From positions 64,001 through 128,000 of IMG/VR virus record IMGVR_UViG_3300023184_000034: a stretch of DNA of 64,000 nucleotides, one strand, 5' to 3'. The notes below the pieces were generated by a model that saw nothing but the letters and a program-made list of their open reading frames with translations, was not told where the DNA came from and did not search any database. This document shows positions 26,591 to 54,049 of the stretch, piece by piece. Position numbers and translations under genes: made by a program. Position 1 is the stretch's first letter, and each line of letters begins with the position of its first letter. The stretch comes from a virus.

Positions 26591-27635
26591 GTAAAAACTC
26601 CGTTTGTTTATGTAGCATAGGAAGTCTAGTTTCGTAATTTTCCATATGCTGTATTATTGTTTTGCAAATAAAAGGTCTGTATCTACTGTATGCTTCAAAA
26701 CTTTCAGTCCATTCGCTGGGATACTTAAAAGTATCAAAAGCCATTTCACTATAGCTAAGTCTATCCGGCACCATGGGAACAGCACCCACCACAGCACCTT
26801 CGTACCAGCTGATGCCCAGCGTCTCTTGCAAGTTAGCACTGAACACCATTTTAGCACGACCTAACAGCTTGTGATATTCGTGTTTGTCTAATTGTGTATC
26901 TTGGCAAACTACAAATTCATATTGAGGCAAATGCGTGGCCAAGTCTCGGAAGATTTCAACTTGCTTCTCTGGCGCAATGCGATGCGGAAACAATATAAGG
27001 TCACGCTTGGGGGTAGTCCAGTAGTTGTTCAAAGTATCTTGCATATACTCCATGGGCCAACCAGTACGAACTATCTTACCGCTGTTGTATCGTTCTGCCC
27101 AGTCTTCTTCATACCAGGGATTTTCTGTTGGATAATCATGTAACAGATTATCAAAGAACATCTTAACATGGAATTCAGTAGCAAAGTAGTTGTGATCAAA
27201 AGCATGATAAAAACTTCTTTCAGCGTTTCTCACCCAAGGCTTATTGCCAACCAACCTGCCTAAAAAGTCTTGTGGATCATAACTACCAGCATGCCACAAG
27301 CCATGTGTAGTTACTGGAATACCCAACAACTCACTCATGTACTTTAGATTAATGATACCTGGATGCCAAGCATCAGTAAACACAAAATGATCGCCGGGAT
27401 TAACGGATCCACTGCAAAATAACCTACCCATCTGCTCCACTTGACTAGCCTTGTATATATTAGTGCCGCCAAAGTTAAGAAATGCTCCAGGAGTGGTAGC
27501 ACTAGGAATGTCCGTAGGACCTGATATAATGTTGACATGGTGTCCTGCCTTTTGTAAGAGTGCAGGTACATGAGTCTTCCATTGACCCGTGTACCTTGTC
27601 TCAACTGACTCTAAATCAATTAAGAAGATAGTCAT
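26544..27635 (-). CDS. GT-B fold glycosyltransferase
   Basis: FTDAWHPG, HAGSYD, FPHRIAPEK, QETLGISWYEG (ExxxxxxxE), YSEM. Confidence 0.75.
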   Translation of the reverse strand: MTIFLIDLESVETRYTGQWKTHVPALLQKAGHHVNIISGPTDIPSATTPGAFLNFGGTNIYKASQVEQMGRLFCSGSVNPGDHFVFTDAWHPGIINLKYMSELLGIPVTTHGLWHAGSYDPQDFLGRLVGNKPWVRNAERSFYHAFDHNYFATEFHVKMFFDNLLHDYPTENPWYEEDWAERYNSGKIVRTGWPMEYMQDTLNNYWTTPKRDLILFPHRIAPEKQVEIFRDLATHLPQYEFVVCQDTQLDKHEYHKLLGRAKMVFSANLQETLGISWYEGAVVGAVPMVPDRLSYSEMAFDTFKYPSEWTESFEAYSRYRPFICKTIIQHMENYETRLPMLHKQTEFLRDNYFSAGGLLANIK

Positions 27636-27886
27636 TAGTTTTCAAAACGTTCGTGTTTGGGATTTTTACCCAAGTAAGGTTTACGTTCACCTGTGTATGC
27701 TTTCTTAGGCCGACGACTCTTTTCAAAATTACGCCACTGCCAACTTTCTCTATTGTACAAATCTGATTCATCAAACGGCGCCCCCTCGATTTTACACCAA
27801 TCTAAAAATCCCTCAAGGTCGTCAAAGATTTTTACAATGTCCGGCCGGGTTTCGAAATAACTGATATTTTTGTAATTATTAGCCAT
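27635..27886 (-). CDS. Hypothetical protein
   Basis: IFDDLE.FLDWC..G..FDESDLY segment. Confidence 0.6.
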   Translation of the reverse strand: MANNYKNISYFETRPDIVKIFDDLEGFLDWCKIEGAPFDESDLYNRESWQWRNFEKSRRPKKAYTGERKPYLGKNPKHERFEN

Positions 27887-40117: not shown

Positions 40118-40141
40118 TGTGTTCCCCGAATTAATATGTAT

Positions 40142-41902
40142 TTATTTCACAGAGCATTTGGGAACAGACATTCCGTTCTTGGTTTGCATACCTGTTTGTG
40201 TTTGCCCAGTTCGACAAACACTTGTTTTTGTTCTGGGTTTGATTGTTTTGGGCCTGGTTGATTTAACCGGCTGCAACATCTCTTCTTTTGTTAGTCTGGC
40301 CAGTTTGTTGGCTTCTTTGATTGGATTTTTTTCTTGAGATTGTTTCTCTTGTTTTTCTTTCCATTCTTTTTCAAATTCTGCTTTGGCTTGTCTAGCACGT
40401 TCAGCACTGGCTGTTGATTTGGCCTGCTCACGATCCCACGCACGGCTCAGTTTCACCTGTGCAGACATGCCTTCGTTGGGCATGATACCAGGCGCACCTG
40501 CTCCTGGTTTGAATCCCATGCTGTGTCCGGGAATTTCATTCTCTGCTACACTTTTCTTTTTCTTCTTGGCAATAGCAATGGCAGCTTGTTGTGCAGGATT
40601 GGCCGCTTCTTTCATCATCACACGTTCAGCAATCACAGTGGCATATTGATTGATCAAGTTGCGTTTTTGTACATGTTGTTCTGCAATCTCAGATTCCACT
40701 TGGTGAAAGTACTTGCCCAAGATGTTTTCACGTTCAATTGGTTCAAATACATGTGGTGTTTCTTCTTGGGGTGTTTGATAGTGTTGCATGGCCATTTGTA
40801 CTGGCAGTGTGACTTTGTGTGGACTTTTGCCTTCTTTTAAAATACCAACATTATTCTTATTTACAATAGATAAAAACTTATTTAGATTGTTTTCCTGTAC
40901 AGGAACAGTCTGTTGTGCTTTTTGTTTTTGTAATTCTGCTTGTGCTGGAGTCATTCTTAGTTTTTGATCATATTTCCAACCAGGAGTAAATATTCCGTCA
41001 GGTTGTTGCATGAATCTAGCGTTAGCTTGTTTTTCAAATTCTTTATGTTGAGCACGATTAAATTCCGCGTCTGGGGATTTGTCATCGATGTTTGATAGAC
41101 CAATTGATTGATCAATTGCATATTCTTTACCTTCTGGGGTTCCTAACATACGTTGAATTAGTTCCCAGTCATCTTTAACAAATGCAGGTTGTTTAAAATT
41201 AGGATCAGCTTGTCTTGCTTGATAGTAAGAACCACTTAATGCCATCATCAAATCAGCAAAGTCACTACCACCTTTCCATGCACCGATGCGTGTTGGGTCT
41301 GACGTAGAAGGATGTGCCCCATCAATAATGTCTGCAGGATGTTTGTAATTCTTTTTAAAGAAATCAATACTTGGTACTTGATATTTTGCTGGATCAACTT
41401 GTGGCGTAGTAGGTGCTGCTGTAGCAGGCGCTGCAGGTTGATTTATTTCAGCTTCTTTAACAATTTGAAGTAAATTTCTCATCCCAACATCTTCTAAATA
41501 TTTTTTAGCAAGCTCTGCGTGTGGCGTTCCGCCTGCTACTAAATCGGCATGCTCTTTTTGTCTTGCCTGTTCCCACGCTTGTAAGTTAGGTCCTGCTAGT
41601 TTTTCAGCAGCCGCTTTTAGCTTATCAATCTCGGTCCTAGCGTCTGCACTAACACCGACCTCGACTGGAACAAGATTGCCGGAGCCCGTTGCTTCTTTTT
41701 CTAGGAAATCATACTTCCCCATTAGTTCTTGATACCTTTCCCAGTTAGGATTCGAGTAGTTAGGACCAGTTGGATCTGCTTGGGGTGGTTGATTTAACTC
41801 AGCTTCTTGAACCACTTGAAGAAATTTCCTCATACTGTTGGCATCAACTGCTGGGTTAGCAGCCACACTGTCCAACTTCTGAAGTAATTTCGCCATGTCC
41901 AT
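40142..41902 (-). CDS. 586-aa putative internal virion polyprotein
   Basis: Repeated helix-E tags MRKFLQVVQEAELNQP, MRNLLQIVKEAEINQP, LNKFLSIV..ILKEG; many x-x-E sites. Confidence 0.6.
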   Translation of the reverse strand: MDMAKLLQKLDSVAANPAVDANSMRKFLQVVQEAELNQPPQADPTGPNYSNPNWERYQELMGKYDFLEKEATGSGNLVPVEVGVSADARTEIDKLKAAAEKLAGPNLQAWEQARQKEHADLVAGGTPHAELAKKYLEDVGMRNLLQIVKEAEINQPAAPATAAPTTPQVDPAKYQVPSIDFFKKNYKHPADIIDGAHPSTSDPTRIGAWKGGSDFADLMMALSGSYYQARQADPNFKQPAFVKDDWELIQRMLGTPEGKEYAIDQSIGLSNIDDKSPDAEFNRAQHKEFEKQANARFMQQPDGIFTPGWKYDQKLRMTPAQAELQKQKAQQTVPVQENNLNKFLSIVNKNNVGILKEGKSPHKVTLPVQMAMQHYQTPQEETPHVFEPIERENILGKYFHQVESEIAEQHVQKRNLINQYATVIAERVMMKEAANPAQQAAIAIAKKKKKSVAENEIPGHSMGFKPGAGAPGIMPNEGMSAQVKLSRAWDREQAKSTASAERARQAKAEFEKEWKEKQEKQSQEKNPIKEANKLARLTKEEMLQPVKSTRPKTIKPRTKTSVCRTGQTQTGMQTKNGMSVPKCSVK

Positions 41903-41906
41903 GTTG

Positions 41907-43934
41907 TTAGCCTTTTACCGGTGTAAGTGATCCGGATATACTCTGTAGAATTTGAGGGCCGATATTACCAGCACCTGTACTGGTATTTACAACCACTACC
42001 AAGATCATGTCATTGACATTGAAACTTTGATTGGCCGAAAAAACTGTACCGTTTTTTGATGGTATACGTTCGTTGCTGGTCTTTATTCCAGGATGATTCC
42101 AAGTTCTGTAGTGTCTGCCTGTACTGAGTTTTGTGTTGTAGTACAACTGGGGGGCAATCAAAATAAAATCCTTACTGAGCATGCCTTGTTTGCGATAAGC
42201 ATAGACCCAATCCATATTTACATTTACTGCGCCTTCGTCTCCATTTTTACTGAATTGACTAGCATCTACTTGTTTGTATCCTGGTATTGTAGGAGCCCCA
42301 TCAGGCAGTTTTATAGATTTTTGTTGTTCAACAGCACAACCACCGTTACTAATAAATTTACTCTCTATCTTTTGTAACTTTATCAGCATTGGCCTTGTTA
42401 ACTGCTGACGGAGTTGCGCTGGAATTATCCAATTGCCAACTCCATTTCTTACGTGAAACGGTGTGGGAATCCACATACCGTTGGGATCTAGATAGCCAAA
42501 GTCCGGTGCAGGTTTGACACCCGCCGGCCATGTTTTAGGATCTTCAGGGTCAGAATTAGGACCAGCGGTTGATCCAGTTTGACCACCGGCGGCGCCAGCG
42601 GCGCCAGCGGCACCTACAGCACCCACGATTGCTGGCAATTGACCAGACATGGCCTTGTCTTTAAGATCTTCTATACCGTCTATTGTTGCTTTTATATCTA
42701 ATTTTAAATCGGCACTGGTGGTAGTTAGTCCGAAATAACGCACAAGTACGGGCAGTTGTTTTTTGATTGTATCAACATCTTCTTTTGATAAAACTCCAGA
42801 CTGTATGGCTTGAGCAACGCCGCCGCCATCTGCACCTGCACCTGCACCTGCCTCGGCGCCACCGTCGAATCCCGCCACGCCTCCGGTGGGTTTATCTTCT
42901 GGTTTTTCTTCTGTGTTATTCCACCAGTCCCATAATGCTTTACCACCTTCATATGCTCCCCATCCGGTCAATGCTGCACCGCCAATCTTGGGCAAGGCAG
43001 CACGAATTGGATTACGGGCTTTAAACGCAAGTGATCGTCTAGCCAGTGACTGGGCTGTTGTTCTGGCTGCTGTTCTAGCGCCTGCTGTGGCACCCGGACC
43101 CATTCTGAACATTCTACCAAGTCCCTTTATTAACGGAGCAATAAATTCATTCAGTTGTTCTGGCTTGTTTTCAACTAAAATAGTAAAAATTCTAATTTGT
43201 TCAGCAGGTGAAAATTCATGTAGGTTCTCAGATATCATCCTACGTTTGAGATTATTTCTACTTTCTGTTGTTACATTATATTTTTTAAGAATATTTTTTA
43301 ATTGAGTTAATGCCGTGGCTAATTCAGCTGGTGGACCAATATCTTTTTCTGGATCTCCTGTTTTTCCTCGAAGCTTGGCATCTGCAGCACCAATATCTTT
43401 TTCTGGATCTCCTGATTTACCCCAAGGTTTGACACCTGCAGCACCAATATCTTTTTCTGGATCTCCTGATTTACCCCAAGGTTTGACATCTGCAGCACCA
43501 ATATCTTTTTCTGGATCTCCTGATTTACCCCAAGGTTTGTCGCCCATGTTTGATGGCTTGTTAGTACTGGTGGGAAGTTCTTCTGCCATAGGGTGTTGTG
43601 GTGGGATACCAAATCCCACTTCACCGTCTGTGGCACCTGCATCACTGGTTTTAGTTGCGGATAATTTTTGAAAATCTTTAGGACTTACAATTATTTTACC
43701 ACCGCCTTCTAAACCAGCAATAATACTACCAGCTGATGAGATGCTTATTTTTCTAAATCCTTGAGATAGAGCCTTTGTTTCAACATCTGGGGTAAGTTCA
43801 AACCATAGTTTACTTGGTTCAACTGGAGTTAAGCCGTTGCCACTTTTGACCATGGGCTTGCCGCCCTGCATGGTTATGTAGTAAGGAGCCTCTCCTTCAG
43901 CTATGAATTTAGAAACAATATCTTTTACACGCAT
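41907..43934 (-). CDS. 675-aa putative internal virion polyprotein
   Basis: N-terminal tag MRVKDIVSKFIAEG; 18-aa tandem repeats; amphipathic segment after LNE. Confidence 0.6.
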   Translation of the reverse strand: MRVKDIVSKFIAEGEAPYYITMQGGKPMVKSGNGLTPVEPSKLWFELTPDVETKALSQGFRKISISSAGSIIAGLEGGGKIIVSPKDFQKLSATKTSDAGATDGEVGFGIPPQHPMAEELPTSTNKPSNMGDKPWGKSGDPEKDIGAADVKPWGKSGDPEKDIGAAGVKPWGKSGDPEKDIGAADAKLRGKTGDPEKDIGPPAELATALTQLKNILKKYNVTTESRNNLKRRMISENLHEFSPAEQIRIFTILVENKPEQLNEFIAPLIKGLGRMFRMGPGATAGARTAARTTAQSLARRSLAFKARNPIRAALPKIGGAALTGWGAYEGGKALWDWWNNTEEKPEDKPTGGVAGFDGGAEAGAGAGADGGGVAQAIQSGVLSKEDVDTIKKQLPVLVRYFGLTTTSADLKLDIKATIDGIEDLKDKAMSGQLPAIVGAVGAAGAAGAAGGQTGSTAGPNSDPEDPKTWPAGVKPAPDFGYLDPNGMWIPTPFHVRNGVGNWIIPAQLRQQLTRPMLIKLQKIESKFISNGGCAVEQQKSIKLPDGAPTIPGYKQVDASQFSKNGDEGAVNVNMDWVYAYRKQGMLSKDFILIAPQLYYNTKLSTGRHYRTWNHPGIKTSNERIPSKNGTVFSANQSFNVNDMILVVVVNTSTGAGNIGPQILQSISGSLTPVKG
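43335..43539. repeat. 54-bp tandem repeat, about 3.8 copies
   Basis: accaatatctttttctggatctcctg recurs at 43335, 43389, 43443 and 43497; encodes KPWGKSGDPEKDIGAADV. Confidence 0.92.
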
Positions 43935-43938
43935 AATA

Positions 43939-45552
43939 TTATCCTAATAAACGTTTTGTCAATGCACGAATTTGATCAACTTCACGATTCTCAACCAGTG
44001 CTGGCTGTTCAGTACGATTCAAACGACCAGTAAGTTCACGCATGCGAGCCAAATCATTTCCTTCGCTGATAGGATCTTTTTTGCCTGCTGGTGCTGGCAT
44101 CATTGCACCTAATTTTTTAGCTTCTTCTGCATCTTTGGCACCCGATGGATTTGGCACAACAACTAAATTCTCATCAGTTACTTTTTCTTTCTTCTTTCTT
44201 TCTGCCATGTAAGCAGTAGTTTCTTTCATGTTCCGCCAAATGGCTGCTGCTACCATCTTGTCATCTGTTTCCTTAACAGTTTGCTTTTTATGACCCTTGG
44301 CCGCACGACTCATAGTTTGTTTGGCAGCTTCTTTAACACCCACTGCCTTCATAGCTCCATACGTCATTGCGGCATTCTTTAAACCTGGCACCATTGCTGA
44401 TCCCAGAGACTTTGTTTTTTCCCAAGCACTCATTGGTGCTGGAGCACCCGCAGCGGTAGGAGTATCTTCTTTAACTTTCTTGCCGCCTTTTTCATCTTTG
44501 CCAATGCGCCCGGCGATAACATCACCGCGTGTTACTTTGTCATAAGGTTTGGCATTGTTGGCCAAGTTACCGTCGCCTTTCTTTTTGGCTTCGTACATGC
44601 CACATTCTTTTAAACCGTGTACTGGACACTTTTTATCTTTTGGTGTGTGATTGCATTTGCCTTCACCCATTGCTGCACTTGCTCCAGCTTTCTTTAGATC
44701 AGCACCAGTGGCTCTCATGCCTGGCACTGTGGTTGTTGCGGTTGTGGGAATTCCAGATTTTTGTGGTGCACCACTTATTGCGGTTTCTTTAACACCACCG
44801 CGCAACTTCTTAAAATCATCTCCGTCTAATTTGCCGTTATGATTCTTGTCCAGTTTCTTCTTACCACCTTTGAGTGCTTCGTCAACTTTCTTGCCGTCTT
44901 TCACACGAGTCACTGAATCTTTACCAAAACGTTTTTCCCAGTTTTTGCCTTCTTTCTCTTCAGCTTTGTCAGCAGCTTTGTTGCCTTCCTTGTCTGCAGC
45001 TGATTGTGATTTGGCATTTGATTTGGGCTCAGTATGCTCTTCATCACTGAATCTGTTGGGATTCTCTTTGTGTTTAGTTACACCTTTGGTTGAACGGTCA
45101 ATTTCGCCACCTGTGGATGATTTTTCTTCAGAAACTTTTTCAGCTTGAGCTTTCTTGAGTTCTTTCACTTTTGATTTTGCTTCTGATAATAATTCTTTGA
45201 TTCTCATTTTTTGTCCTTCGCTCAGTGTATCACTGTTGTCCAAGTGGTGACCGTATTCGCTGAATTTCATTTCATATTCTAAATAGTGATATACTGATGC
45301 AATATAGTCAGCAGCCTTGGTAATTTTGGCCTGTACCCATGATTCCAATTGGTCATTGTCTTCCAACTGTTGATACAGCTTGTGTGCGTAGTTGGCTATT
45401 TTGAACAAATCAGCTTTGGCCATGGCACCTTCGCGGTCAGTCTCGCCACCGTGTAAGCCTATGGTGCCGCCCACTGGTTCTGAATCCATTTCTGGCTGAT
45501 CCATCTCAGGTTGGTCCATTTCTGAGTCAATGTTATCTAATTCTGCTGGCAT
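43939..45552 (-). CDS. 537-aa charged putative prohead core/internal protein
   Basis: N-terminal EGAMAK..LESWVQAKITKAADY domain; more than 12 [LVIM]-x-E sites; EF-hand-like loop; late-like CTAAATA upstream. Confidence 0.6.
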   Translation of the reverse strand: MPAELDNIDSEMDQPEMDQPEMDSEPVGGTIGLHGGETDREGAMAKADLFKIANYAHKLYQQLEDNDQLESWVQAKITKAADYIASVYHYLEYEMKFSEYGHHLDNSDTLSEGQKMRIKELLSEAKSKVKELKKAQAEKVSEEKSSTGGEIDRSTKGVTKHKENPNRFSDEEHTEPKSNAKSQSAADKEGNKAADKAEEKEGKNWEKRFGKDSVTRVKDGKKVDEALKGGKKKLDKNHNGKLDGDDFKKLRGGVKETAISGAPQKSGIPTTATTTVPGMRATGADLKKAGASAAMGEGKCNHTPKDKKCPVHGLKECGMYEAKKKGDGNLANNAKPYDKVTRGDVIAGRIGKDEKGGKKVKEDTPTAAGAPAPMSAWEKTKSLGSAMVPGLKNAAMTYGAMKAVGVKEAAKQTMSRAAKGHKKQTVKETDDKMVAAAIWRNMKETTAYMAERKKKEKVTDENLVVVPNPSGAKDAEEAKKLGAMMPAPAGKKDPISEGNDLARMRELTGRLNRTEQPALVENREVDQIRALTKRLLG

Positions 45553-45578
45553 GAGTATACTCCGTTGTCTTTATGTAT

Positions 45579-46595
45579 TTAGCGTCGTTTGATAGGCGGC
45601 CCACCAAATAAGCTAGCGCCTTTGATGTCCAAGCCGTTCTTGGCTGTGCCGTCTTTGTTTTTGGGTTGATTAACTTTGGGTTGCGGTGGTGCCTTGCTGC
45701 CTGATTTGCCAGGACTACCAATATAACTCTTTTTACCACGTGCTTTGCCAGGGCTCAAATGCGGTGCATCTACCGTGCCAATGTTAGCAGCACTGGTTGC
45801 ACCCACGGTGGCTGACTCACCCATTGGTTTGCCTTCCGCCACACCTTGCTCTTTACTTTTCTTCAGTATATCAGGATGTGCGAAACCTTTTTTGACTTGT
45901 TCTGCCGGACTCATCTTATCAACTAACTTACCAAGTTTAGGATCAACATCATGCCAAGTCTTTGGATAGGGCTTTTTATCACCTCCCGCCACACCTTTGT
46001 TTCCTTTTGCCATTTTCAATGAGGTTTTTAGTGCTGCCGTTTTTCCTCTAGGAGTTTTAGCATCATTTGCGGTATCTGCTCTGCGTTGAAGTGGATCGTA
46101 CCCAAACTTTGGGCTATTAGGATTGCGCGGTGTTTTGTTGCCTTCGTCATCTACATCATACGCATCTGGATCGCTACGCCATTTAGCAGCCTCCGCCACA
46201 CCTTGCTCACCATGCTTTTTAGCACGACGAATTCTATTTGCTAAATGATGTAATCCAGACTCCATACTACGTGCTTTACGCTCTCCAGCAGATAAATTTT
46301 GCTCACGATCCGCATATTGCCAATCTGATCCACCTAATGCTTCGTATTCTTTTTTCATTTTTGCATATTCAGCTTCGAGGTGCGGAAGATCTGCGTGGTC
46401 CTGTGCTTGGTCATCTTGAGATTTTTGATGTGCTACTGCTCTATCTGTTTCACGTTTTTCAGAATCTTGTCTGCGTAACTCATCGTGCTCTGGATCACCG
46501 TGGATACGTAGATTTTTAAATTTAGGATTATTTTTTTGTAAATCTTTAAGAAACGAAGACATATCGTTTTCTTGTACTAACTCATTTATTTTCAT
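45579..46595 (-). CDS. 338-aa putative internal virion protein made of cassettes joined at GVAE/GVAG motifs
   Basis: N-terminal tag MKINELVQE; three AAGGTGTGGCGG-encoded junctions. Confidence 0.65.
   Translation of the reverse strand: MKINELVQENDMSSFLKDLQKNNPKFKNLRIHGDPEHDELRRQDSEKRETDRAVAHQKSQDDQAQDHADLPHLEAEYAKMKKEYEALGGSDWQYADREQNLSAGERKARSMESGLHHLANRIRRAKKHGEQGVAEAAKWRSDPDAYDVDDEGNKTPRNPNSPKFGYDPLQRRADTANDAKTPRGKTAALKTSLKMAKGNKGVAGGDKKPYPKTWHDVDPKLGKLVDKMSPAEQVKKGFAHPDILKKSKEQGVAEGKPMGESATVGATSAANIGTVDAPHLSPGKARGKKSYIGSPGKSGSKAPPQPKVNQPKNKDGTAKNGLDIKGASLFGGPPIKRR
45836..46204 (-). repeat. Three identical 12-bp motifs AAGGTGTGGCGG with unrelated in-frame spacers
   Basis: CCGCCACACCTT starts at 45836, 45986 and 46193 (periods 150 and 207 bp); copies 1 and 3 share GAGCAAGGTGTGGCGGA. 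Confidence 0.85.
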
Positions 46596-46822
46596 TTTTT
46601 AATTCCTCTAAATCCTGTGCCTACAGCAACTTCACCACCCATGAACTTGGGCAAACTAAACCATAACTTAAACCATTCTTCGGTTCCGGGTTTGATATTC
46701 TGCTCACGCATTATAACTGCTTTTTCAGTACCAGTTACACTGATGTTGCTTCCGTCATAAGGTTGCAGGCCTTTAAATTCCTTAATGCCTGCTAACTTTT
46801 TAAGACGTGCTAATTCATCCAT
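46592..46822 (-). CDS. Small phage protein beginning MDELARLKKLAG
   Basis: NIKPGTEEWFKLWF segment; coupled to dps by TAATG. Confidence 0.65.
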   Translation of the reverse strand: MDELARLKKLAGIKEFKGLQPYDGSNISVTGTEKAVIMREQNIKPGTEEWFKLWFSLPKFMGGEVAVGTGFRGIKK

Positions 46823-47259
46823 TATTTCAAACTGGACCTTAACATCCAGCTGTGCTTTTTATGTGCATCTTGGCGATCTGCTAAAAAGTTACTCAACCCA
46901 TGATCTCCAGCTTGTTCAGCCATGTCAAATGTGATGCGGAATATATTAGCCATACGCTCGCTATCTTCTAACAACTCACTCAGCATGCCACTCCAATCAG
47001 GCACAGCGTTTTCATCTTCAACTTTGGTAAGCATACTGAACTTGGCTAGGCTTGCTGGTGTGTAAATCTGTAATGCACGTAGGTGTTCCGCAAATGGATC
47101 CACAGCACCATATACTTCTTCATATATGGTTTGAAATAAGTTGTGCAGTTGAGCAAACAACGGACCCTCCACATTCCAATGGAAATTATGTGCTTTTAAA
47201 TAAAAACTAAATTCGCTGGCAAACGCTGTTTTCAATGCCAAGTGATATTTCTCGTCCAT
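46822..47259 (-). CDS. dps: Dps ferritin-like DNA protection protein
   Basis: KAHNFHWNVEG..F..LH..F...Y, D..AE, HKKHSWML. Confidence 0.92.
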   Translation of the reverse strand: MDEKYHLALKTAFASEFSFYLKAHNFHWNVEGPLFAQLHNLFQTIYEEVYGAVDPFAEHLRALQIYTPASLAKFSMLTKVEDENAVPDWSGMLSELLEDSERMANIFRITFDMAEQAGDHGLSNFLADRQDAHKKHSWMLRSSLK

Positions 47260-47261
47260 GA

Positions 47262-48332
47262 TTAAATTCCGTATTTGTTCTTTTTAATTTTTGCCACTGC
47301 ACTGGTTTTATTAACATCAGCAGTTTCTAAACTTCGATTGTTACTCCATGTCTGTCGCTTACCGCCACCTACTTGTTTAGCGGCAGCATTGATCATATCG
47401 TTTTCTTCTTCAGTGTAGGGTGCTAGTAATGGATCTCCACCGATCCAATTGTCTGCTTCAATTTTTGTGGGATAATCAGGAGCACCTGCCAATGCAATAC
47501 CCATCCTGTACCCCATATATGCACTACCAGTACTTTGATTCATTGAAGGAAATGTTGTTGCATTTTTAATTGCGGCCTTATGATGTCCGTGCATCTTTTG
47601 TGTGCCACCGTGACCTTCTCTTAATGATCTTGCCAACGCATTGGCTTCCTTCAAAGATACATCTGGTTCGGCTTTTTCTTTTTTTGCTCGCACCTTGGGC
47701 TTGCTGAAATCTTGCATGCGTGTTTGTGCTTTTTGCATCAAATCTCTTACTTCGTCATCATCCAGTTCGGGGTTCATTGCATCACGCCAAACAGCAAACT
47801 TTTCGTCATCACTCTTGCTTGGATCCATTAACACATCTCGCATGGGCGTGGCACGTGGCCCTTCTTGTTCACGACTTGGATCGTTGGTTTCTTGACGAGC
47901 AATCACATTTAAACTGTTAAAACTAAACGGAATTCTGCCAGCTTTGTCTGGAACTCCGTTATACTGCTTGACATAACTTAAACCTTTGACTTGATCTTCT
48001 CCCACTACCACAGTTACATCAGTATAACCGTGATGGTCGAGTTTTGTTAACACACGAGTTAAATCAGGCATATCATCTGTGGCAGTGTGAAAAATATGTC
48101 CGTGAGCTGGAAATACTTTTTTATAAATCTGCATTTTTTCTTCTGGCTTGATTGGATCGTCTTTGCCCACTGTGCGGCTAACAACAAAGTAAGGATCAGC
48201 ACCTTGTTCGTCTGCTTGTGTGATAACACTGCTGGCCAGATACATGTGACCTTTGTGACCCATGCCACGCCCCCAGCCCACCACAGCAGCTTTGCCTTCC
48301 CCAGTGCGATTAAGAAATTCACGTAACAACAT
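47262..48332 (-). CDS. HIGH-superfamily (cytidylyltransferase-like) nucleotidyltransferase with an extra C-terminal domain
   Basis: VVGWGRGMGHKGH, VVVGEDQ, YNG, RATPMR; N-terminal tag MLLREFL. Confidence 0.7.
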   Translation of the reverse strand: MLLREFLNRTGEGKAAVVGWGRGMGHKGHMYLASSVITQADEQGADPYFVVSRTVGKDDPIKPEEKMQIYKKVFPAHGHIFHTATDDMPDLTRVLTKLDHHGYTDVTVVVGEDQVKGLSYVKQYNGVPDKAGRIPFSFNSLNVIARQETNDPSREQEGPRATPMRDVLMDPSKSDDEKFAVWRDAMNPELDDDEVRDLMQKAQTRMQDFSKPKVRAKKEKAEPDVSLKEANALARSLREGHGGTQKMHGHHKAAIKNATTFPSMNQSTGSAYMGYRMGIALAGAPDYPTKIEADNWIGGDPLLAPYTEEENDMINAAAKQVGGGKRQTWSNNRSLETADVNKTSAVAKIKKNKYGI

Positions 48333-50230
48333 TAGTCTTTCCTCGGAGCCCAGTTGGCCTGGTCAATGGTTTTTACAAACTGTCCAGGCAAATCATTTTT
48401 AAATTTACCACCCGGATGTGCTTGTACATATCCTTCTGGTTTTGTTTGACGAATACCGCCGTGTGTGCCTGAACTCAATGTGTTGATAACTTTCATCTTT
48501 TCGTGTGTTAGTAATTCAACAGCACTCAACACAGCATCTAATCCAGGATGACTCAACACTTTTTGTGCTTGTGTATTGCTTAGTTTTGCAGTGGCCCATT
48601 CTCTAAATTTCTGTTTAACACCAGCCACACGTAAATTTTGATTAAAGAAACTGTACAACACATCGCCAGGTTTGCTTAGTCCAGGCTGACCCGCAATAAA
48701 GCTATCTATAGCAGCCTTGTTTTGTTTGATGTATGACTCGGCGTGTTTTAATCCAGTGTTGTCAACTTTGGGTGCATTTTCAACATATGTTGTGCCTTGT
48801 ACAATAACATCACCGTTGGATAATTTTTCAGCATTGGGATAACGTGTTTCATCTGCACCAATGTGTGTGTAGTAACCAGTTGCAGCCACCATAACTTTTG
48901 ATCTAGAAATTTTCTTACCCAGTGCGCTGCCTACTGGAATATGGAAACTTGTTATGTTGGGAGTGAAATCATATTCATTGGTACTGGGATTTAACACAGC
49001 TGGCTTTAAAGGACTAAACAGTATCCCACCTTCGATATATCCTGATTTGGGACTGATGCTTTCAAAGTAAGGCCATAGGTCTGCAAGTCCTTGAGCAAAT
49101 GCTTTGCGTTGATCTTCTTGTCCGGGTTGTGCTGTGCCTGTGCCCAACACAAACATGGCCACATCGTCCGGGTCGTTCATCATGGTGGTAACACCACTCT
49201 TGGTATGAGTGGTGCCGCGCTTCATGTAGTCCCATGCGTTCTTTGGAAACATGTGAAATTTGCCATGCTCGTCTCGACCCCAGTATACCACAGGACTTCC
49301 GTCCCATTTTAATTCTATACCTTTGCCTTTGGCAGTCATGTCACGCAGTCGTTCAACTGCATGTAAACCACCCACACTGCCATCAGTGAAAACCAAATCT
49401 TCAATGTGTTGATACTTGCGGCCCACAGCTGCTTCCAACAATGATGTGGCTGGACCACGTAACGGAGCAGCTGACCAACTGGACCCAGATGTTGCAGCAT
49501 CATGTACTTGTTGTTTTAATGCAGGATCTTTAATTGCTGACATGATACTTTCTGCACTGCCAAGATCATTACCAGTGTGTCCAGGCCCTAATAATAGTGT
49601 GGCTATTTCATCCCAACTATCGGACAACAAGTCTGCTTTCTTTCTAGCAGCATCTCTTGCGTACAGTCCTTCGTCTGGGCTCCACAGCATGTTCTTAGCA
49701 CTGGCCAACGCACTCATCACCACTTGCTTGTGTACACCCTTGTATGGACTACCCTTGGGTATCTGATGTTGATGGAACTTGGATACTTTCTCAGCTTTAC
49801 GAACAACTTTGATATCACACTGATAAAATTGTCCGTTGTATGGAAATTTAATGTGTACAGTTACCCCAGCTTTATAAGTTGCTGGAACACCATTGTCTAA
49901 TAAAAATTGTTCCAGAGCGTTTCTAGCGGCCTTGTCATCGTCAGCCAACTTCTTGCTCTGAGGAATTTTAAAATATTGTTTAACTTGATCCATGTCGCAG
50001 CTAACATCCAAGTCACCTGTTGGATGTTCTGGTGTAGGGTCTGTGTTGGCACCACTGCCTTGTACATACAACGGAAAACCTGCTTTGCGAAGATACTTCT
50101 TAACTTGCGATAACAGTGCTTGTACTATATCCGGAGTAGGATAAAACTCCACAGTTTCAGGCCAGATGTTGCCACCACCTTCTTTGAGAATAGGCTTTCT
50201 AACATTAGAAAATAATTCACGTAGTAACAT
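48332..50230 (-). CDS. Fusion of a Pol-beta-superfamily nucleotidyltransferase and an RNA-ligase-like (KxDG) domain
   Basis: N domain GS..GDLDV..YQCD; C domain HIEDL, LKWDGSP, IEGGILF, PEGYV, FVK; start MLLRELF. Confidence 0.65.
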   Translation of the reverse strand: MLLRELFSNVRKPILKEGGGNIWPETVEFYPTPDIVQALLSQVKKYLRKAGFPLYVQGSGANTDPTPEHPTGDLDVSCDMDQVKQYFKIPQSKKLADDDKAARNALEQFLLDNGVPATYKAGVTVHIKFPYNGQFYQCDIKVVRKAEKVSKFHQHQIPKGSPYKGVHKQVVMSALASAKNMLWSPDEGLYARDAARKKADLLSDSWDEIATLLLGPGHTGNDLGSAESIMSAIKDPALKQQVHDAATSGSSWSAAPLRGPATSLLEAAVGRKYQHIEDLVFTDGSVGGLHAVERLRDMTAKGKGIELKWDGSPVVYWGRDEHGKFHMFPKNAWDYMKRGTTHTKSGVTTMMNDPDDVAMFVLGTGTAQPGQEDQRKAFAQGLADLWPYFESISPKSGYIEGGILFSPLKPAVLNPSTNEYDFTPNITSFHIPVGSALGKKISRSKVMVAATGYYTHIGADETRYPNAEKLSNGDVIVQGTTYVENAPKVDNTGLKHAESYIKQNKAAIDSFIAGQPGLSKPGDVLYSFFNQNLRVAGVKQKFREWATAKLSNTQAQKVLSHPGLDAVLSAVELLTHEKMKVINTLSSGTHGGIRQTKPEGYVQAHPGGKFKNDLPGQFVKTIDQANWAPRKD

Positions 50231-50604
50231 TATATACCCTTGTACTTGCCAGCTTGTATGTGTTCTTGTATATCGTCGTGCATTTTGGAACAAGCTTCTT
50301 TGCACATCTTTTCTTCTAATTCATCGGGCAATTCACGTATGGGGAATTTTTCTTTGTACTGTTTATAGCATTCTTTTATGGCTTCGGCAAACATGGTGGC
50401 TTGTACCGGCTTCTTGGCATTGACCAAATCTAAACATTTAACTAAAACTGGAAAAACGTGACGACGGTATATATGGTCGTCGTTGTGCATGAAATGCAAC
50501 AAGTCTTCTATTAGATCGTAGTCTAACTCACGTTTATCGCCATGTTGTTTAACATATGCTAATTCTTTAAAATTAGCGTTTTCTAATAACTCTTTTATAA
50601 GCAT
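50230..50604 (-). CDS. Hypothetical protein with MLIKELLE tag
   Basis: DL..DL.HFMHNDD..YRR segment; ATAAATA at 50638-50644. Confidence 0.65.
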   Translation of the reverse strand: MLIKELLENANFKELAYVKQHGDKRELDYDLIEDLLHFMHNDDHIYRRHVFPVLVKCLDLVNAKKPVQATMFAEAIKECYKQYKEKFPIRELPDELEEKMCKEACSKMHDDIQEHIQAGKYKGI

Positions 50605-50663
50605 TTTTATTCCCAACAGAATACTCTGGATTTAGAGTATTTATCGCTTTTACGATCATTAGG

Positions 50664-51287
50664 CTATGCTTTGATAATGCGAGAAACCTTGGATATACTA
50701 CCGCCAAGGTGCATTTTTGACATGAGTAAGTTGTTATCACCTGTTACATAGAAGTGTGTACCGCCCCAACTGCGATTCCTTGTCAAGGCTGCTATACAAC
50801 TCTTTGTTAGTTTGAGTTTTTTATTACATGATGCCCATGATATAAATGCACTGTGTTCCTGTGTAGTTTTACCCAGCGTCACTCGGAAATCGTAGTTCAT
50901 CTTGGGCATAATCACAGTATCAGAACTCAGTGACACATTGGCCGGCGGCGCACAAACATACTTGACCCTGTTGCTGTCCAACTTTGCTAAATCATCTATA
51001 TGACTTTTATTATTTGTGTACACAGTAATCCATGGGTTTTCTATCCTGATATTTAAATCAACCGATATAGACAACACTTTATACAGAGACAACGCATAGT
51101 CCTTGTCTTCAAAACTTTTAAAACTTAGAGATCCAGGCCGAGAACTTGGAGAAATGCTACTTTTTTGCAACATGTTCAAACAGTGTTGCCAATCACCGTT
51201 GCGAAAGAAGTGTGCATTGGAACACACCAACACTATCTTGTATTGGTATATCCCCATGAACAACTTGCTAGTGGTTTTAACTAACAT
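50664..51287 (-). CDS. Hypothetical protein
   Basis: 207-aa ORF overlapping the clpA end. Confidence 0.6.
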   Translation of the reverse strand: MLVKTTSKLFMGIYQYKIVLVCSNAHFFRNGDWQHCLNMLQKSSISPSSRPGSLSFKSFEDKDYALSLYKVLSISVDLNIRIENPWITVYTNNKSHIDDLAKLDSNRVKYVCAPPANVSLSSDTVIMPKMNYDFRVTLGKTTQEHSAFISWASCNKKLKLTKSCIAALTRNRSWGGTHFYVTGDNNLLMSKMHLGGSISKVSRIIKA

Positions 51288-53556
51288 TCATCTCAACCAA
51301 CGAAGTAGTGGAATCCACTGTTAGCAACGGCGTTTTTGATTCCTTGGGAGTTGACAACAACACCAACTTGTCGTCTTGAACTGTGATGTTTAGTACTCCG
51401 CCGTTCTTTAAATTACCAAACAACATGAGCTTTGCCATCGGACGTTTGATTTCCTTGTCAATCACACGTTGTAACGGACGTGCGCCCATCTTGGGATCAA
51501 AACCTTTGGTAATAAGCCAGTTAGTACTTTCCTTATCTAACTTGATACGAATGCCTTTTTCTTTAACTTGAGCACGTAACTCATCCATAAATTTAACAAT
51601 AACCTTGGTCATAGACTCTTTGCCCAACTTGTTAAAAGTCATAATACCATCCAATCGATTACGGAACTCTGGTGTAAAGAATTTCTTCAAATCTGCATCA
51701 CTGTAATCTTTTTCCTGTGCGCCAAAACCAATGGCATTCTTTTCCGCAGATTGTGCGCCAGCATTGGTAGTGAGGATAAGAATCAAATTACGGCAATCTG
51801 CTTGTTTGCCATTTGACCCTGTGACAAAACCGTTATCCATCATTTGCAACAACACAGTTGTGACATCTGGATGCGATTTTTCAACTTCATCAAACAACAA
51901 CACTGCATTTGGATTCTCTTGAATCTGTGTGATTAGCAATCCAGCGTTCTCCTCAAACCCCACATAGCCAGGAGGACTACCGATCAGTTTGGAAATGCTG
52001 TGCTTTTCTTGGTATTCTGACATGTCAAATCTCAACAACTTGACACTCAAGTGCTTGGCCAGTGATTTGGCAGTTTCGGTCTTGCCGCAACCCGTGGGCC
52101 CCATGAACACAAATGATCCAATGGGTTTATTTTCTGATTTTAATCCAGCCTGCGCCACCATGATCTTATCCACAACTTCTGTAAGAGCAAGATCTTGCCC
52201 GTAAACTTCACGTTGCAAGTTTTCTTGTAGCATGGAAAGATTGCTGGATTCTGTTTCCATGATCTTTTCTTCAGGCATTTGAATCATCTTGGCCAGTTCA
52301 AACTGAATTTCACGCTCGCCAATGATTCGATCATCTGCAAGTTTGAGATTAAAACGACTACATGCCAAATCGATCAAGTCAATTGCTTTGTCTGGCAACT
52401 TCTTGTCTGTTTGATATTTGACTGACAATTTAATAGCAGCATCCAGTGCATCATCACGTATTTTAACCTTGTGGAAACCTTCGTAGTATTTCTTAATACC
52501 TTTGAGGATTTGTTTGGTAACTTCCACGGTGGGCTCGTCAACTGTGATGCGTTGAAACCTGCGCATCAGCGCACGATCCTTTTCAAAGTGCTTGCGATAT
52601 TCTTCCCATGTGGTTGATGCAATGACTTTGATGTTGCCTTTGCTCAGTGCAGGTTTCATCATGTTGGCAAGGTCGTTTGAACTGTTGCCACCTGCGCCAG
52701 CACCACTAATCATGTGAGCTTCGTCGATAAACAACACAGTTTTGCCTTTCTTCTGCAATGCCTTAATAACATGCTTGAATCTTTCTTCAAAGTCTCCACG
52801 ATACTTGCTGCCAGCCAGCATAGCACTGATATCTAAACTGTAAACTTTGTATTCTTTGAGAAATTCTGGAACAGCACCATTCACAATATTGTGTGCAAGG
52901 CCTTCAGCAATAGCAGTCTTGCCCACGCCAGGATCACCAACTAAAATCACATTATTTTTATTGCGACGACCCAATGCCAGTGCAATATTTTCTAATTCGT
53001 CAATACGACCAATAACTGGATCAATCTTTTGTTTTTCAACCATGTCGTTTAGATTGGTTGTAAACGCACGAAGTGCTCTGTCGCTTTGATTGTCTGTGCC
53101 AGATTCTTCTTCAGATTCTTCAGAATTGCTGTTATTAACAAAGTCATTGAACTTGTCTTTATCGATTTTGGCCTTTTGGATGTAATAATGTGCCCAGCTG
53201 CGTTTTTCACCAATCATGCTCATGAACACATCAGTGGGTTCAATACGTTGCCTACCGTTAAACAACACTTGTGTAAATGCACGATTAAGCACACGCTCTA
53301 CACTTTGAGTTTTCTTTGGTTTAACAACCACATCAGTGATGGTGATTTCTTGACACTTGTTGTGCAAATAATCTGTTAGATCATTTTTAAGTTCGTCAAG
53401 ATTTGCGCCAAATCCTGTGATCACGTTTCCAAATGGTTCCTCCAACAACATGGCATACAATAAATGTTCTATTGTAAGATACTCGTGATGAAGTTTTTTA
53501 GCTGTATCAATTGCTTTTTCAAATACCGCTTGTAGGTTATCACTTGGTTCAACCAT
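51277..53556 (-). CDS. clpA: ClpA-type double AAA+ chaperone/unfoldase
   Basis: HEYLTIEHLL N-domain, GDPGVGKT, GPTGCGKT, IGF ClpP-docking loop, MGARPL. Confidence 0.93.
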   Translation of the reverse strand: MVEPSDNLQAVFEKAIDTAKKLHHEYLTIEHLLYAMLLEEPFGNVITGFGANLDELKNDLTDYLHNKCQEITITDVVVKPKKTQSVERVLNRAFTQVLFNGRQRIEPTDVFMSMIGEKRSWAHYYIQKAKIDKDKFNDFVNNSNSEESEEESGTDNQSDRALRAFTTNLNDMVEKQKIDPVIGRIDELENIALALGRRNKNNVILVGDPGVGKTAIAEGLAHNIVNGAVPEFLKEYKVYSLDISAMLAGSKYRGDFEERFKHVIKALQKKGKTVLFIDEAHMISGAGAGGNSSNDLANMMKPALSKGNIKVIASTTWEEYRKHFEKDRALMRRFQRITVDEPTVEVTKQILKGIKKYYEGFHKVKIRDDALDAAIKLSVKYQTDKKLPDKAIDLIDLACSRFNLKLADDRIIGEREIQFELAKMIQMPEEKIMETESSNLSMLQENLQREVYGQDLALTEVVDKIMVAQAGLKSENKPIGSFVFMGPTGCGKTETAKSLAKHLSVKLLRFDMSEYQEKHSISKLIGSPPGYVGFEENAGLLITQIQENPNAVLLFDEVEKSHPDVTTVLLQMMDNGFVTGSNGKQADCRNLILILTTNAGAQSAEKNAIGFGAQEKDYSDADLKKFFTPEFRNRLDGIMTFNKLGKESMTKVIVKFMDELRAQVKEKGIRIKLDKESTNWLITKGFDPKMGARPLQRVIDKEIKRPMAKLMLFGNLKNGGVLNITVQDDKLVLLSTPKESKTPLLTVDSTTSLVEMNVS

Positions 53557-54049
53557 TACGTTTTCCTTTTCTCTTTAATAATTTCTTTTTAGCTAATGAC
53601 AATTTTAATGGACTAATATTGTCTATAAAACAAACACCATCCAAGTGGTCTAGTTCATGTTGAAAACATCTTGAATCTATTCCAGTTAGTTCTATTATAC
53701 ATTCTTTGTTTTGTCTGTCAATGTATCTGACTGTAATATTGTTATGTCTGGGTACTTTTAAAATTAGTCCAGGAAAGCTCAAGCATCCTTCTTCTCCAGT
53801 GACCATATTGTTATCTCCCCACAATATCGATGGATTGAACATACAAAACGGTACTTGATTTGTCAAGTGTATGGCAAAAACTCGTTTAAGTAAACCAACT
53901 TGATTGGCCGCTAATCCCCTGCCGTGACTCACAACCATAAGTTGAACCATGTCAACTTCTAAATTGGCCGGGTTCTGATCTTTTTCAAAATCCCAACGTT
54001 CTGCAGTTTGTTTTAGAATAAGATCAGACGACTCTATTAATTTCAGCAT
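53549..54049 (-). CDS. def: Peptide deformylase
   Basis: GLAANQVG, EGCLS, QHELDH. Confidence 0.95.
   Translation of the reverse strand: MLKLIESSDLILKQTAERWDFEKDQNPANLEVDMVQLMVVSHGRGLAANQVGLLKRVFAIHLTNQVPFCMFNPSILWGDNNMVTGEEGCLSFPGLILKVPRHNNITVRYIDRQNKECIIELTGIDSRCFQHELDHLDGVCFIDNISPLKLSLAKKKLLKRKGKRNG

Follow-up and report, generated by a model that had tools for sequence, protein, structure and literature searches.

A giant T4-type freshwater phage encodes coupled polymerase-like, ligase-like and nucleotidyltransferase domains behind leaders resembling those of T4 head cargo

Phage T4 is known to carry internal head proteins that are diverse and have only a targeting sequence as their common element; the system also loads foreign proteins, and the head protease removes the targeting sequence (PMC3012670, PMC7697877). 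In a eukaryotic virus, African swine fever virus (ASFV), Pol X, a DNA ligase and an AP (apurinic/apyrimidinic) endonuclease are packaged in the particle (PMC6505686). Among cyanophages, liquid chromatography-mass spectrometry (LC-MS) of CsCl-purified virions detected the 362-residue "cytidylyltransferase" S-SZBM1_140 in S-SZBM1 (PMC9146016) and gp154 in S-CREM2 (PMC10665884), and the authors of the latter study state that cytidyltransferases are often detected in cyanophage virion proteomes. Here we describe two coupled genes, A and B, in a 64,000-nucleotide stretch of viral DNA (hereafter the window, meaning the whole stretch analysed) that spans bases 64001-128000 of the 161-kb IMG/VR record IMGVR_UViG_3300023184_000034. 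Gene A joins a family-X-polymerase-like (PolX-like) domain to a ligase-like domain of family DUF6267, gene B encodes a HIGH-type nucleotidyltransferase, and both begin with a short leader resembling those of T4 head cargo. The reading we prefer, with a confidence somewhat short of even, is that A and B are late-expressed head cargo, injected as a fill-and-seal kit.

The source is an uncultured giant freshwater phage of the T4 type. CheckV estimates the record to be 44% complete, which at 161 kb implies a giant phage. T4-related genes on the record encode a gp43-type DNA polymerase, a clamp loader and ClpA-like, tail-fibre-like and virion-structural proteins, and a gp21-type prohead protease gene is followed by gp22- and gp23-like genes. 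A BLASTN search with the locus against 50,697 phage records gave no match; relatives of A and B sit on metagenomic contigs of up to ~346 kb. The elements of the A/B locus are as follows (slashes mark proposed cut points; pLDDT, predicted local distance difference test):

50230-50604, minus strand: 124-residue gene, starting with the tag-like leader MLIKELLE/N; its stop and the start of A overlap in TAATG
48332-50230, minus strand: gene A, 632 residues counted from the MLLRELF start
50180-50230, minus strand: leader of A, residues 1-17, MLLRE/LFSNVRKPILKE/G, with [LI]xE sites whose last residues are 5 and 17
49433-50179, minus strand: PolX-like domain (palm and thumb), residues 18-266, with catalytic carboxylates D73, D75 and D139
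49433-49441, minus strand: inter-domain site L264-L265-E266/A267, a predicted prohead-protease cut between the PolX-like and ligase-like parts; E266 in 63/75 relatives
48335-49432, minus strand: DUF6267 domain, residues 267-632, ligase/capping-type nucleotidyltransferase-like, with a large helical insert
49298-49309, minus strand: motif I, K308-W-D-G311, with the candidate nucleotidylated lysine (K 85/92, D 86/92, G 86/91)
48425-48436, minus strand: motif IV, E599-G600-Y-V602 (E 84/84, G 84/84)
47262-48332, minus strand: gene B, 356 residues
48318-48332, minus strand: leader of B, MLLRE/F; residues 1-11 have pLDDT below 50
47691-48299, minus strand: HIGH nucleotidyltransferase domain of B, residues 12-214
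47616-47654, minus strand: disordered linker of B, with LKE (227-229) and LRE (237-239) as candidate protease sites
47265-47615, minus strand: C-terminal part of B, residues 240-356, low-confidence model

All the features that a sequence-only reading of this DNA had listed are present, on the minus strand. The genes form a TAATG-coupled run in the order 124-residue gene, A and B, with the junctions ATA TAATG TTA before A and GAC TAATG TTG before B, so that the coupling of A to B reported earlier could be read directly. An alternative, longer open reading frame (ORF) for gene A, with a GTG start, extends to 50305 and overlaps the upstream gene. The 124-residue protein matched no Pfam or PHROG family.

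In relatives the same domains are found within single chains. A+B fusions of 984-1003 residues (P0057-P0067) have the junction ..APRKD-NIQENINRTG.., at which the MxLRELF of B is gone and an IxE site is left. P0283 combines PolX-like, DUF6267 and CTP_transf_like domains, and P0260 (L010 2184-5618), a chain of 1144 residues, combines a HIGH nucleotidyltransferase, a haloacid dehalogenase (HAD) phosphatase with an FDLDDTL motif (PF11019, E 1.8e-5), a PolX-like domain and DUF6267. That this chain adds a phosphatase to the three domains fits an end-healing or fill-and-seal picture; the contig of P0260, at 6.7 kb, gives no informative context. Fusions in several domain orders indicate that A and B form one unit, and the earlier view of them as a coupled set is borne out by these chains.

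The closest described counterpart is the cyanophage pair (S-SZBM1_140 and S-CREM2 gp154, with the DUF6267 gene T4-GC 71/190 in P-HM1), in which the two genes are likewise adjacent and homologous to ours (HIGH nucleotidyltransferase, BLASTP E 3e-9; DUF6267, E 2e-14). In T4-like cyanophages the DUF6267 and "cytitidyltransferase" genes lie next to each other downstream of gp43, uvsX, gp41 and mazG; S-PM2 has a 591-residue protein matching DUF6267, and uncultured phages have such proteins of ~590-600 residues, all named cytidyltransferase-like. Unlike A, however, the DUF6267 proteins of P-HM1 and S-SZBM1 are without a PolX-like domain (by inspection), and in other cyanophages tblastn matches to A begin only from residue ~240 onward. 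The DUF6267 proteins PHM1_161 of P-HM1 and S-SZBM1_141 also lack a leader, whereas both virion-detected nucleotidyltransferases bear T4-like ones. The HIGH motif differs too, being GWGRGMGHKGH here and FGRFxPPHxGH in the cyanophage enzyme. No paper mentioning DUF6267 or "cytitidyltransferase" was found in the literature searched.

Both A and B begin with MLLRE, as the sequence-only reading had it. MLLRELF is near-invariant at the N-terminus of ~100 A homologues, and B homologues start with MLLREFL, MRLRQLIE or MNLRELF. Among all ORFs of at least 60 residues in the 161-kb record, the strict motif M[LIVKM][LIV][RKNQ]E[LFIV] occurs five times, with a chance expectation below one (a rough composition-based estimate); all five occurrences are at plausible gene starts, and four of them belong to adjacent genes at 45579-50604. 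Of the 10 consecutive ORFs at 37160-50604, six have tag-like starts; among the 96 remaining ORFs of the record that have 100 residues or more, six do. The carriers are A, B, the 124-, 338-, 675- and 985-residue neighbours and an 80-residue gene in the head block. Because the codons and the upstream DNA differ between carrier genes, the leader is a protein-level motif. It is disordered in the models of both A and B; for A (AlphaFold2, alignment of 111 relatives) the pLDDT is 93 and is weaker only at residues 1-20 (~52) and in the linker at 260-270 (73). Moreover, B sheds the leader when fused behind A, and the leader is thus not part of the fold of B, while the fusions keep one leader at their own N-terminus, as a one-per-chain N-terminal address predicts.

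Set against the T4 leaders (NC_000866), namely MELITELFDE of Alt, MKTYQEFIAE/A of IPII and IPIII, MKTFKEF..ITEA of IPI and MLLIPE of gp68, the window has MLLRELF (compare MELITELF of Alt), MLIKELLE/N and MRVKDIVSKFIAE/G. As in T4 head cargo (IPI, IPII, IPIII and Alt; PMC3012670, PMC7697877), a short N-terminal leader of the same form ends in [LI]xE, a gp21-family protease is encoded in the genome, and diverse, otherwise unrelated cargo genes are clustered. Unlike in T4, the cargo here consists of large enzymes, two per chain with a cut site between them and three in relatives, the leader is a variant, and the phage is known from its sequence alone. For both domains, many of the relatives that stand alone begin with M[RK]xx[ED][FL][LI]xE/A, just before the conserved block GRxYQHxEDL; in stand-alone DUF6267 proteins the leader end, ...xE/A(A)xPxxGRxYQH, takes the position of the SLLE/A linker site in A. 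An 80-residue MILRELF ORF outside the window (record 20393-20635, minus strand) lies between the portal gene and a 289-residue acidic gp67-like gene, and the order then runs gp67-like core, gp21, gp22, gp23; in T4 the small prohead-core genes 67 and 68 occupy this position. The 80-residue protein matches no Pfam family and is a candidate small prohead-core protein. These observations support the tag reading of the leader well, if indirectly. Away from the main block and also outside the window, a 343-residue ORF (record 26728-27759, minus strand) starts with the tag-like MKVYEIITPQP.

The gp21-type protease gene of the record (Peptidase_S77, E 1.5e-26) goes with a particular placement of [LI]xE sites. 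There are exactly three in A (ending at residues 5, 17 and 266) and three in B (ending at 5, 229 and 239), all six of them conserved and in leaders or linkers of low pLDDT, and the folded parts of A and B contain none against ~4 expected (P ~0.02). The leader sites of A ending at 5 and 17 are kept in 101/105 and 83/105 homologues. The linker site placed near 49433 by the sequence-only reading is SLLE/AAVG, which ends at residue 266, nucleotide 49433; the LKE and LRE sites that it had put before the extra domain of B do lie ahead of the C-terminal part, where pLDDT falls below 50 at 215-228 and 235-245, and they are found in 41-64 of 119 homologues. We infer that A and B are cleaved at the [LI]xE sites by the gp21-type protease.

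Evidence from virions comes from the cyanophage homologues. S-SZBM1_140 is a homologue of B (BLASTP E 3e-9) and starts with MRFRQFIIEA, and its leaderless DUF6267 neighbour S-SZBM1_141 is missing from the detected virion proteins (PMC9146016); S-CREM2 gp154 starts with MKNFSSFLTEA. In the literature searched, "capsid targeting sequence" and "cyanophage" were co-mentioned only in a T4 head-assembly review. Since the leader and the cutting sites are like those T4 uses for head loading, A and B are probably injected with the DNA. The earlier claim of a tagged and delivered set thus stands in part: a leader acting as an N-terminal tag and B homologues in cyanophage virions speak for it, and delivery itself stays at the level of probability.

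Alternatively, A and B could be unpackaged cytoplasmic enzymes of nucleotide, cofactor or DNA-modification chemistry, and the N-terminal peptide could be a structural helix, a translation feature or a mark for the adjacent ClpA-type unfoldase. Leaderless homologues lie among replication and nucleotide-metabolism genes in cyanophages (P-HM1), the window genes lie between ClpA/peptide deformylase and DNA polymerase, carry-over is possible in virion proteomes (PMC10665884), and the EGGN after the second "site" is a conserved element of the domain. However, B loses the leader on fusion and the leader is disordered in both models; it is common to unrelated neighbours and to the 80-residue gene in the head-core block; it is like the leaders of T4 Alt and the internal proteins; the [LI]xE sites are all outside the folded parts; and a late-promoter-like motif is found upstream. 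We consider this alternative unlikely.

The N-terminal half of A was described earlier as a Pol-beta-type nucleotidyltransferase, and the assignment can be sharpened. The Pol-beta motif G58-S59 ... D73-x-D75 ... D139 is kept in 52-57 of 56-60 aligned relatives. In the VIA fold search, the top eight rows are family-X polymerases throughout (Z 10.8-11.8, 162-195 residues aligned), including Pol beta (4rpx, Z 11.8, 175 residues, root-mean-square deviation (rmsd) 3.5) and ASFV Pol X (5hr9, Z 11.0, 162/176 residues, rmsd 3.2); Thermus Pol X, Pol lambda, terminal deoxynucleotidyl transferase (TdT) and Pol mu are matched as well, and the matching region is ~22-230 of A. Terminal uridylyltransferases (TUTases), cGAS/DncV-like nucleotidyltransferases (CD-NTases) and CCA-adding enzymes rank below family X and align on the palm only, over at most 119 residues. 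Foldseek matched Pol lambda (E 4e-5), and the BFVD matches include giant-virus Pol X proteins. No Pfam family covers this half. By its model it is thus Pol X-like and minimal, which narrows the earlier, generic Pol-beta assignment. A palm and thumb as in ASFV Pol X suggest templated gap filling rather than tRNA end repair.

The C-terminal half of A matches only DUF6267 in Pfam (PF19782, E 6.8e-14, residues 274-327) and only phrog_455 in PHROG. The KWDG..EGYV motifs by which the sequence-only reading recognized a ligase-like domain are nearly invariant, and a motif V-like K620 follows motif IV in 83/84 sequences, with a single Lys in place of KxK; such near-invariant KWDG, EG(Y)V and K620 are compatible with a lysine nucleotidyltransferase. 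An extra Lys, K578, is invariant, and motifs IIIa and IV are separated by an insert of ~170 residues made up of helices and beta structure. Queried with the full-length model (632 residues), VIA matched NgrRnl (5cot, Z 7.0, 181 residues, rmsd 4.7, model 269-632) and TbREL1 (1xdn, Z 6.7, 174 residues), and Protein Atlas gave a weak lead to PF09414 RNA_ligase (score 0.78). Single-sequence PDB searches returned a chance match only for A and none for B. The model and motifs make DUF6267 a probable divergent member of the ligase superfamily, outside any named ligase family. Like the nick-sealing RNA ligases (NgrRnl/Rnl5, Trypanosoma brucei REL1 and the T4 Rnl2 type), it has KxDG, EG and a motif V-like lysine, and its model resembles them in fold over 269-632 at middling scores; unlike them it has the ~170-residue insert, the single motif V Lys and the extra K578, and shows no detectable profile relationship to them. 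A functional resemblance, and that only, is seen to LigD of bacterial non-homologous end joining, in which a repair polymerase and a ligase are likewise in one polypeptide, with P0260 adding a phosphatase as well. LigD consists of a polymerase, a ligase and a phosphoesterase; the first belongs to the archaeo-eukaryotic primase type, and the second is an ATP-dependent DNA ligase of the classical kind. No Ku partner is known here, though no search aimed at one was made.

As RNA ligases are the nearest ligase folds, a serious rival is that the packaged enzymes act on RNA, healing and sealing host or phage RNAs (e.g., tRNAs cut by anticodon nucleases) or remodelling RNA ends at the start of infection. 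Besides the folds of DUF6267 (NgrRnl/Rnl5, Z 7.0; TbREL1, Z 6.7) and the weak RNA_ligase lead, the HAD phosphatase of relative P0260 counts in its favour, T4 Pnkp having a 3'-phosphatase of that fold, and so does the acceptance of ribonucleotides by family-X polymerases such as Pol mu and TdT. On the other hand, both the palm and the thumb of the N-terminal domain are PolX-like, whereas CCA-adding enzymes and TUTases align on the palm only; a search of the 161 kb gave no polynucleotide kinase (AAA_33), a weak negative because the record is only 44% complete; the T4 tRNA repair enzymes are not known to be virion proteins; and the repair-related neighbours Dps and UvdE concern DNA. An RNA substrate has, in our estimate, a small chance of being the right one. 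Of the substrates proposed earlier, which ranged from tRNA healing and sealing to nucleotide cofactors or signals, the tRNA part agrees with the RNA-ligase-like folds and is at odds with the PolX fold, which favours templated gap filling.

In gene B, the HIGH variant GWGRGMGHKGH (residues 19-29) is invariant in 59 sequences except at K27 (at least 90%), and a second motif, GPRATPMR (158-165), has R160-A-T-P-M-R165 invariant; by eye, the latter was likened to ISGTKMR of P-HM1, a motif of the ISxTxxR type. The variant pointed out by the sequence-only reading, GRGMGHKGH, is thus a conserved one, in which G25-H26-K27-G28-H29 corresponds to the (T/H)xGH motif that follows the first strand, and VIA gives the Rossmann-like fold of HIGH-type enzymes. 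PHROG matched "cytidyltransferase" families only (phrog_3041, E 3e-22), Pfam gave no CTP_transf_like match at E ≤ 0.01, and Foldseek gave no match below E 0.001. The best full-domain VIA matches, at Z 9-10, are adenylyltransferases of nicotinamide mononucleotide (NMN) or nicotinic acid mononucleotide (NaMN), with NadM 2qjo at Z 10.0 and 2qjt at Z 9.8 and an archaeal NMN adenylyltransferase (NMNAT), 1f9a, at Z 9.7; NaMN adenylyltransferases, FAD synthetase, phosphopantetheine adenylyltransferase (PPAT; Z 7.9) and arginyl-tRNA synthetase (Z 10.3) were matched as well. By its model, B is a HIGH-type nucleotidyltransferase nearest to NMN/NaMN adenylyltransferases. The cores of PPAT and class I synthetases score similarly, and the fold therefore leaves the substrate of B unfixed. 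Among B homologues, the C-terminal part ends in a conserved ..KKNKYGI and has a middle of variable length. Structure prediction and fold searches thus give three distinct folds, that of DUF6267 at middling scores, in agreement with the three nucleotidyl-transfer enzymes named from the sequence.

These matches of B bring in a further explanation, with small molecules as the target: B would be an NMN/NaMN adenylyltransferase countering NAD-depleting defences by restoring NAD+ (or would make another dinucleotide), and A would produce or degrade nucleotide signals. The full-domain folds of B agree with it, the cyanophage literature names the family an NMNAT homologue (PMC10665884), and phages are known to have NAD+ reconstitution pathways (Osterman et al. 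2024, as cited in PMC12801897). Against it, the scores of arginyl-tRNA synthetase and PPAT are just as good, the CD-NTases among the fold matches of A cover the palm only, and no Nampt or NAPRTase gene was found in the 161 kb, again a weak negative at 44% completeness. Moreover, the recurrent fusion of the nucleotidyltransferase to polymerase- and ligase-like domains suggests a polymer as their common substrate. We hold this explanation to be very improbable.

The fill-and-seal proposal can be set out as a course of events. The run of the 124-residue gene, A and B would be expressed late, and the leader MLLRELF.. would draw A and B into the assembling prohead core. The gp21-type protease would then cut after [LI]xE, removing the leaders and splitting A into two enzymes, and the virion would hold three separate ones: a minimal family-X-type polymerase, a DUF6267 enzyme from the ligase superfamily, and the HIGH-type nucleotidyltransferase. 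Together with the DNA they would enter the cell, ahead of any phage gene expression. There the polymerase-like and ligase-like pair would fill and seal strand breaks or gaps, as the pairing of these two domains suggests, the likeliest substrate being the incoming phage DNA, possibly damaged or host-nicked; B would serve this pathway by making or activating a cofactor or substrate linked to a nucleotide. The motifs, the fusions, the form and placement of leaders and sites and, in predicted models, the folds were seen directly; packaging, cleavage, injection and all substrates we infer.

DNA is favoured as the substrate because the polymerase-like domain has the fold of templated repair enzymes, because the phage encodes Dps next door and UvdE elsewhere in its genome, and because ASFV provides a precedent of virion-borne Pol X, ligase and AP endonuclease (PMC6505686). 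Nicks made by UvdE need a polymerase and a ligase to finish the repair, which suits a fill-and-seal pair. As in the ASFV set, a minimal palm-and-thumb enzyme of the Pol X kind is paired with a ligase or ligase-like one and a role right after entry is proposed. The set here differs from that of ASFV in its bacterial host, in having the polymerase- and ligase-like domains in one chain, in a ligase-like part that is DUF6267 with RNA-ligase-like folds and not a DNA ligase, and in that no AP endonuclease was seen in the A/B operon and an extra HIGH nucleotidyltransferase is present.

Several observations weigh against this proposal. As to packaging, the cyanophage detections comprise 2-3 peptides, and the authors leave carry-over possible (PMC10665884); cyanophage versions such as those of P-HM1 are without leaders and lie among replication genes; and MLLRELF is similar, not identical, to the T4 leaders. 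An overall depletion of [LI]xE sites was considered and rejected, the totals being as expected (three in A against 3.2), and placement alone is non-random. The residue-17 L-x-E-GGN lies in a conserved EGGN(I/V)(F/W) motif, and many stand-alone relatives carry EGGN at the extreme N-terminus (MILNEGGN..), so this site may be structural. As to the enzymes, a profile of the PolX-like domain found only the TUTase Tailor in the PDB, weakly (E 0.03), and the domain, at ~250 residues, is without the 8-kDa dRP-lyase (deoxyribose phosphate lyase) and helix-hairpin-helix finger subdomains, the aligned range in Pol beta being 142-335 only; these two subdomains are missing from ASFV Pol X likewise. In DUF6267, the motif III Asp of most relatives is Gly402 in the clade of A, with Glu400 two residues upstream, the fold scores are middling (Z ~7), and RNA ligases rather than DNA ligases head the fold matches. 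A DUF6267 profile found no ligase in the PDB, a Pfam scan of 37 DUF6267 members gave DUF6267 alone, and hhalign of DUF6267 against T4 DNA ligase gave a probability of 0.3%; since the profile searches find no ligase, the assignment rests on the motifs and the middling fold match. The place of B in a fill-and-seal pathway is also unexplained.

The loading system is already known; what is new is the cargo, its arrangement as a polyprotein and the use of the leader throughout the family. A stronger version, which we regard as doubtful, is that a capsid-carried gap-filling polymerase, a new kind of ligase and a nucleotidyltransferase helper, made as a protease-cut polyprotein and loaded by a T4-type address tag, mend nicks, gaps or damage done by defences in the incoming genome ahead of gene expression, as a bacterial-virus counterpart of the ASFV set, with DUF6267 as a new ligase family. 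If the fill-and-seal proposal is true, T4 capsid targeting, known for a few small anti-restriction proteins and Alt, would load whole repair enzymes in environmental phages of the T4 type, and injected enzymology, not DNA alone, would shape the first minutes of infection. It would place the first family-X polymerase in a phage virion, would give the widespread cyanophage "cytidyltransferase" and DUF6267, with hundreds of metagenomic relatives, a testable role, and would turn the leader and the [LI]xE rule into a sequence-only predictor of phage virion cargo. In that case, DUF6267 might also serve biotechnology as a new ligase.

Two further elements flank the coupled run:

50638-50645, minus strand: late-promoter-like GATAAATA, a putative promoter, in a 60-nt gap and 40 nt upstream of the 124-residue gene
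46822-47259, minus strand: Dps/ferritin-like gene (PF00210, E 6.6e-22; phrog_3636, E 1.8e-30), directly downstream of B, without a leader

The exact T4 late consensus TATAAATA, of which the whole window has one copy, is absent at the A/B locus and upstream of the 985-residue gene, where only the 7-mer ATAAATA is found, in the latter case 28 nt upstream of that tagged gene. ATAAATA occurs in nine copies on both strands of the window (3757+, 14725-, 20161-, 40145-, 50644-, 63890- and others), several of them preceding same-strand ORF starts by 28-55 nt (e.g., 3785, 20106, 40117, 50604 and 63853), and it may be the late-promoter core of this phage. Late expression of the 124-residue gene, A and B is plausible and not more, because ATAAATA lies upstream and yet the exact T4 octamer is missing.

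In the window, the A/B locus is flanked by ClpA/peptide deformylase on one side and DNA polymerase on the other. Outside the window, the record encodes a 343-residue UvdE UV-damage endonuclease without a tag-like leader (~150736-151767, minus strand; PF03851, E 2e-32); an AP_endonuc_2 candidate, a match below the cut-off, turned out to be this UvdE. By eye, an Fe/Mn superoxide dismutase (188 residues) and a QueD-type enzyme (168 residues) are its neighbours. The surroundings of UvdE together with Dps suggest that the phage invests in coping with DNA damage.

Downstream of the Dps gene, four large proteins without a known family are encoded at 40142-46595 on the minus strand (586, 675, 537 and 338 residues). 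The 675-residue protein has the tag-like start MRVKDIVSKFIAE/G and the 338-residue one MKINELVQE/N; charged residues (Lys, Arg, Asp and Glu) abound in the 537- and 338-residue proteins. In the 537-residue protein, CNHTPKDKKCPVHGLKEC resembles by eye CNKSKGGVDCPIHGTKECP of P-HM1 PHM1_164, the gene after the cytidyltransferase genes there; this Lys-rich neighbour was also considered as a relative of the virion protein S-SZBM1_139 and rejected, as there is no similarity. The 985-residue protein (37160-40117, minus strand) has the tag-like start MNLRDLMNKLDTIAE/A, matches the peptidoglycan-binding family PF01471 (E 3e-11) and has weak endolysin PHROG matches; it is possibly injected wall-acting cargo. 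Just upstream of the tagged block lies a ClpA-type AAA+ unfoldase gene (51277-54049, minus strand; phrog_4871, E 3e-247), and the next ORF upstream of it is, by eye, peptide deformylase-like, with EGCLSFPG and HELDH motifs.

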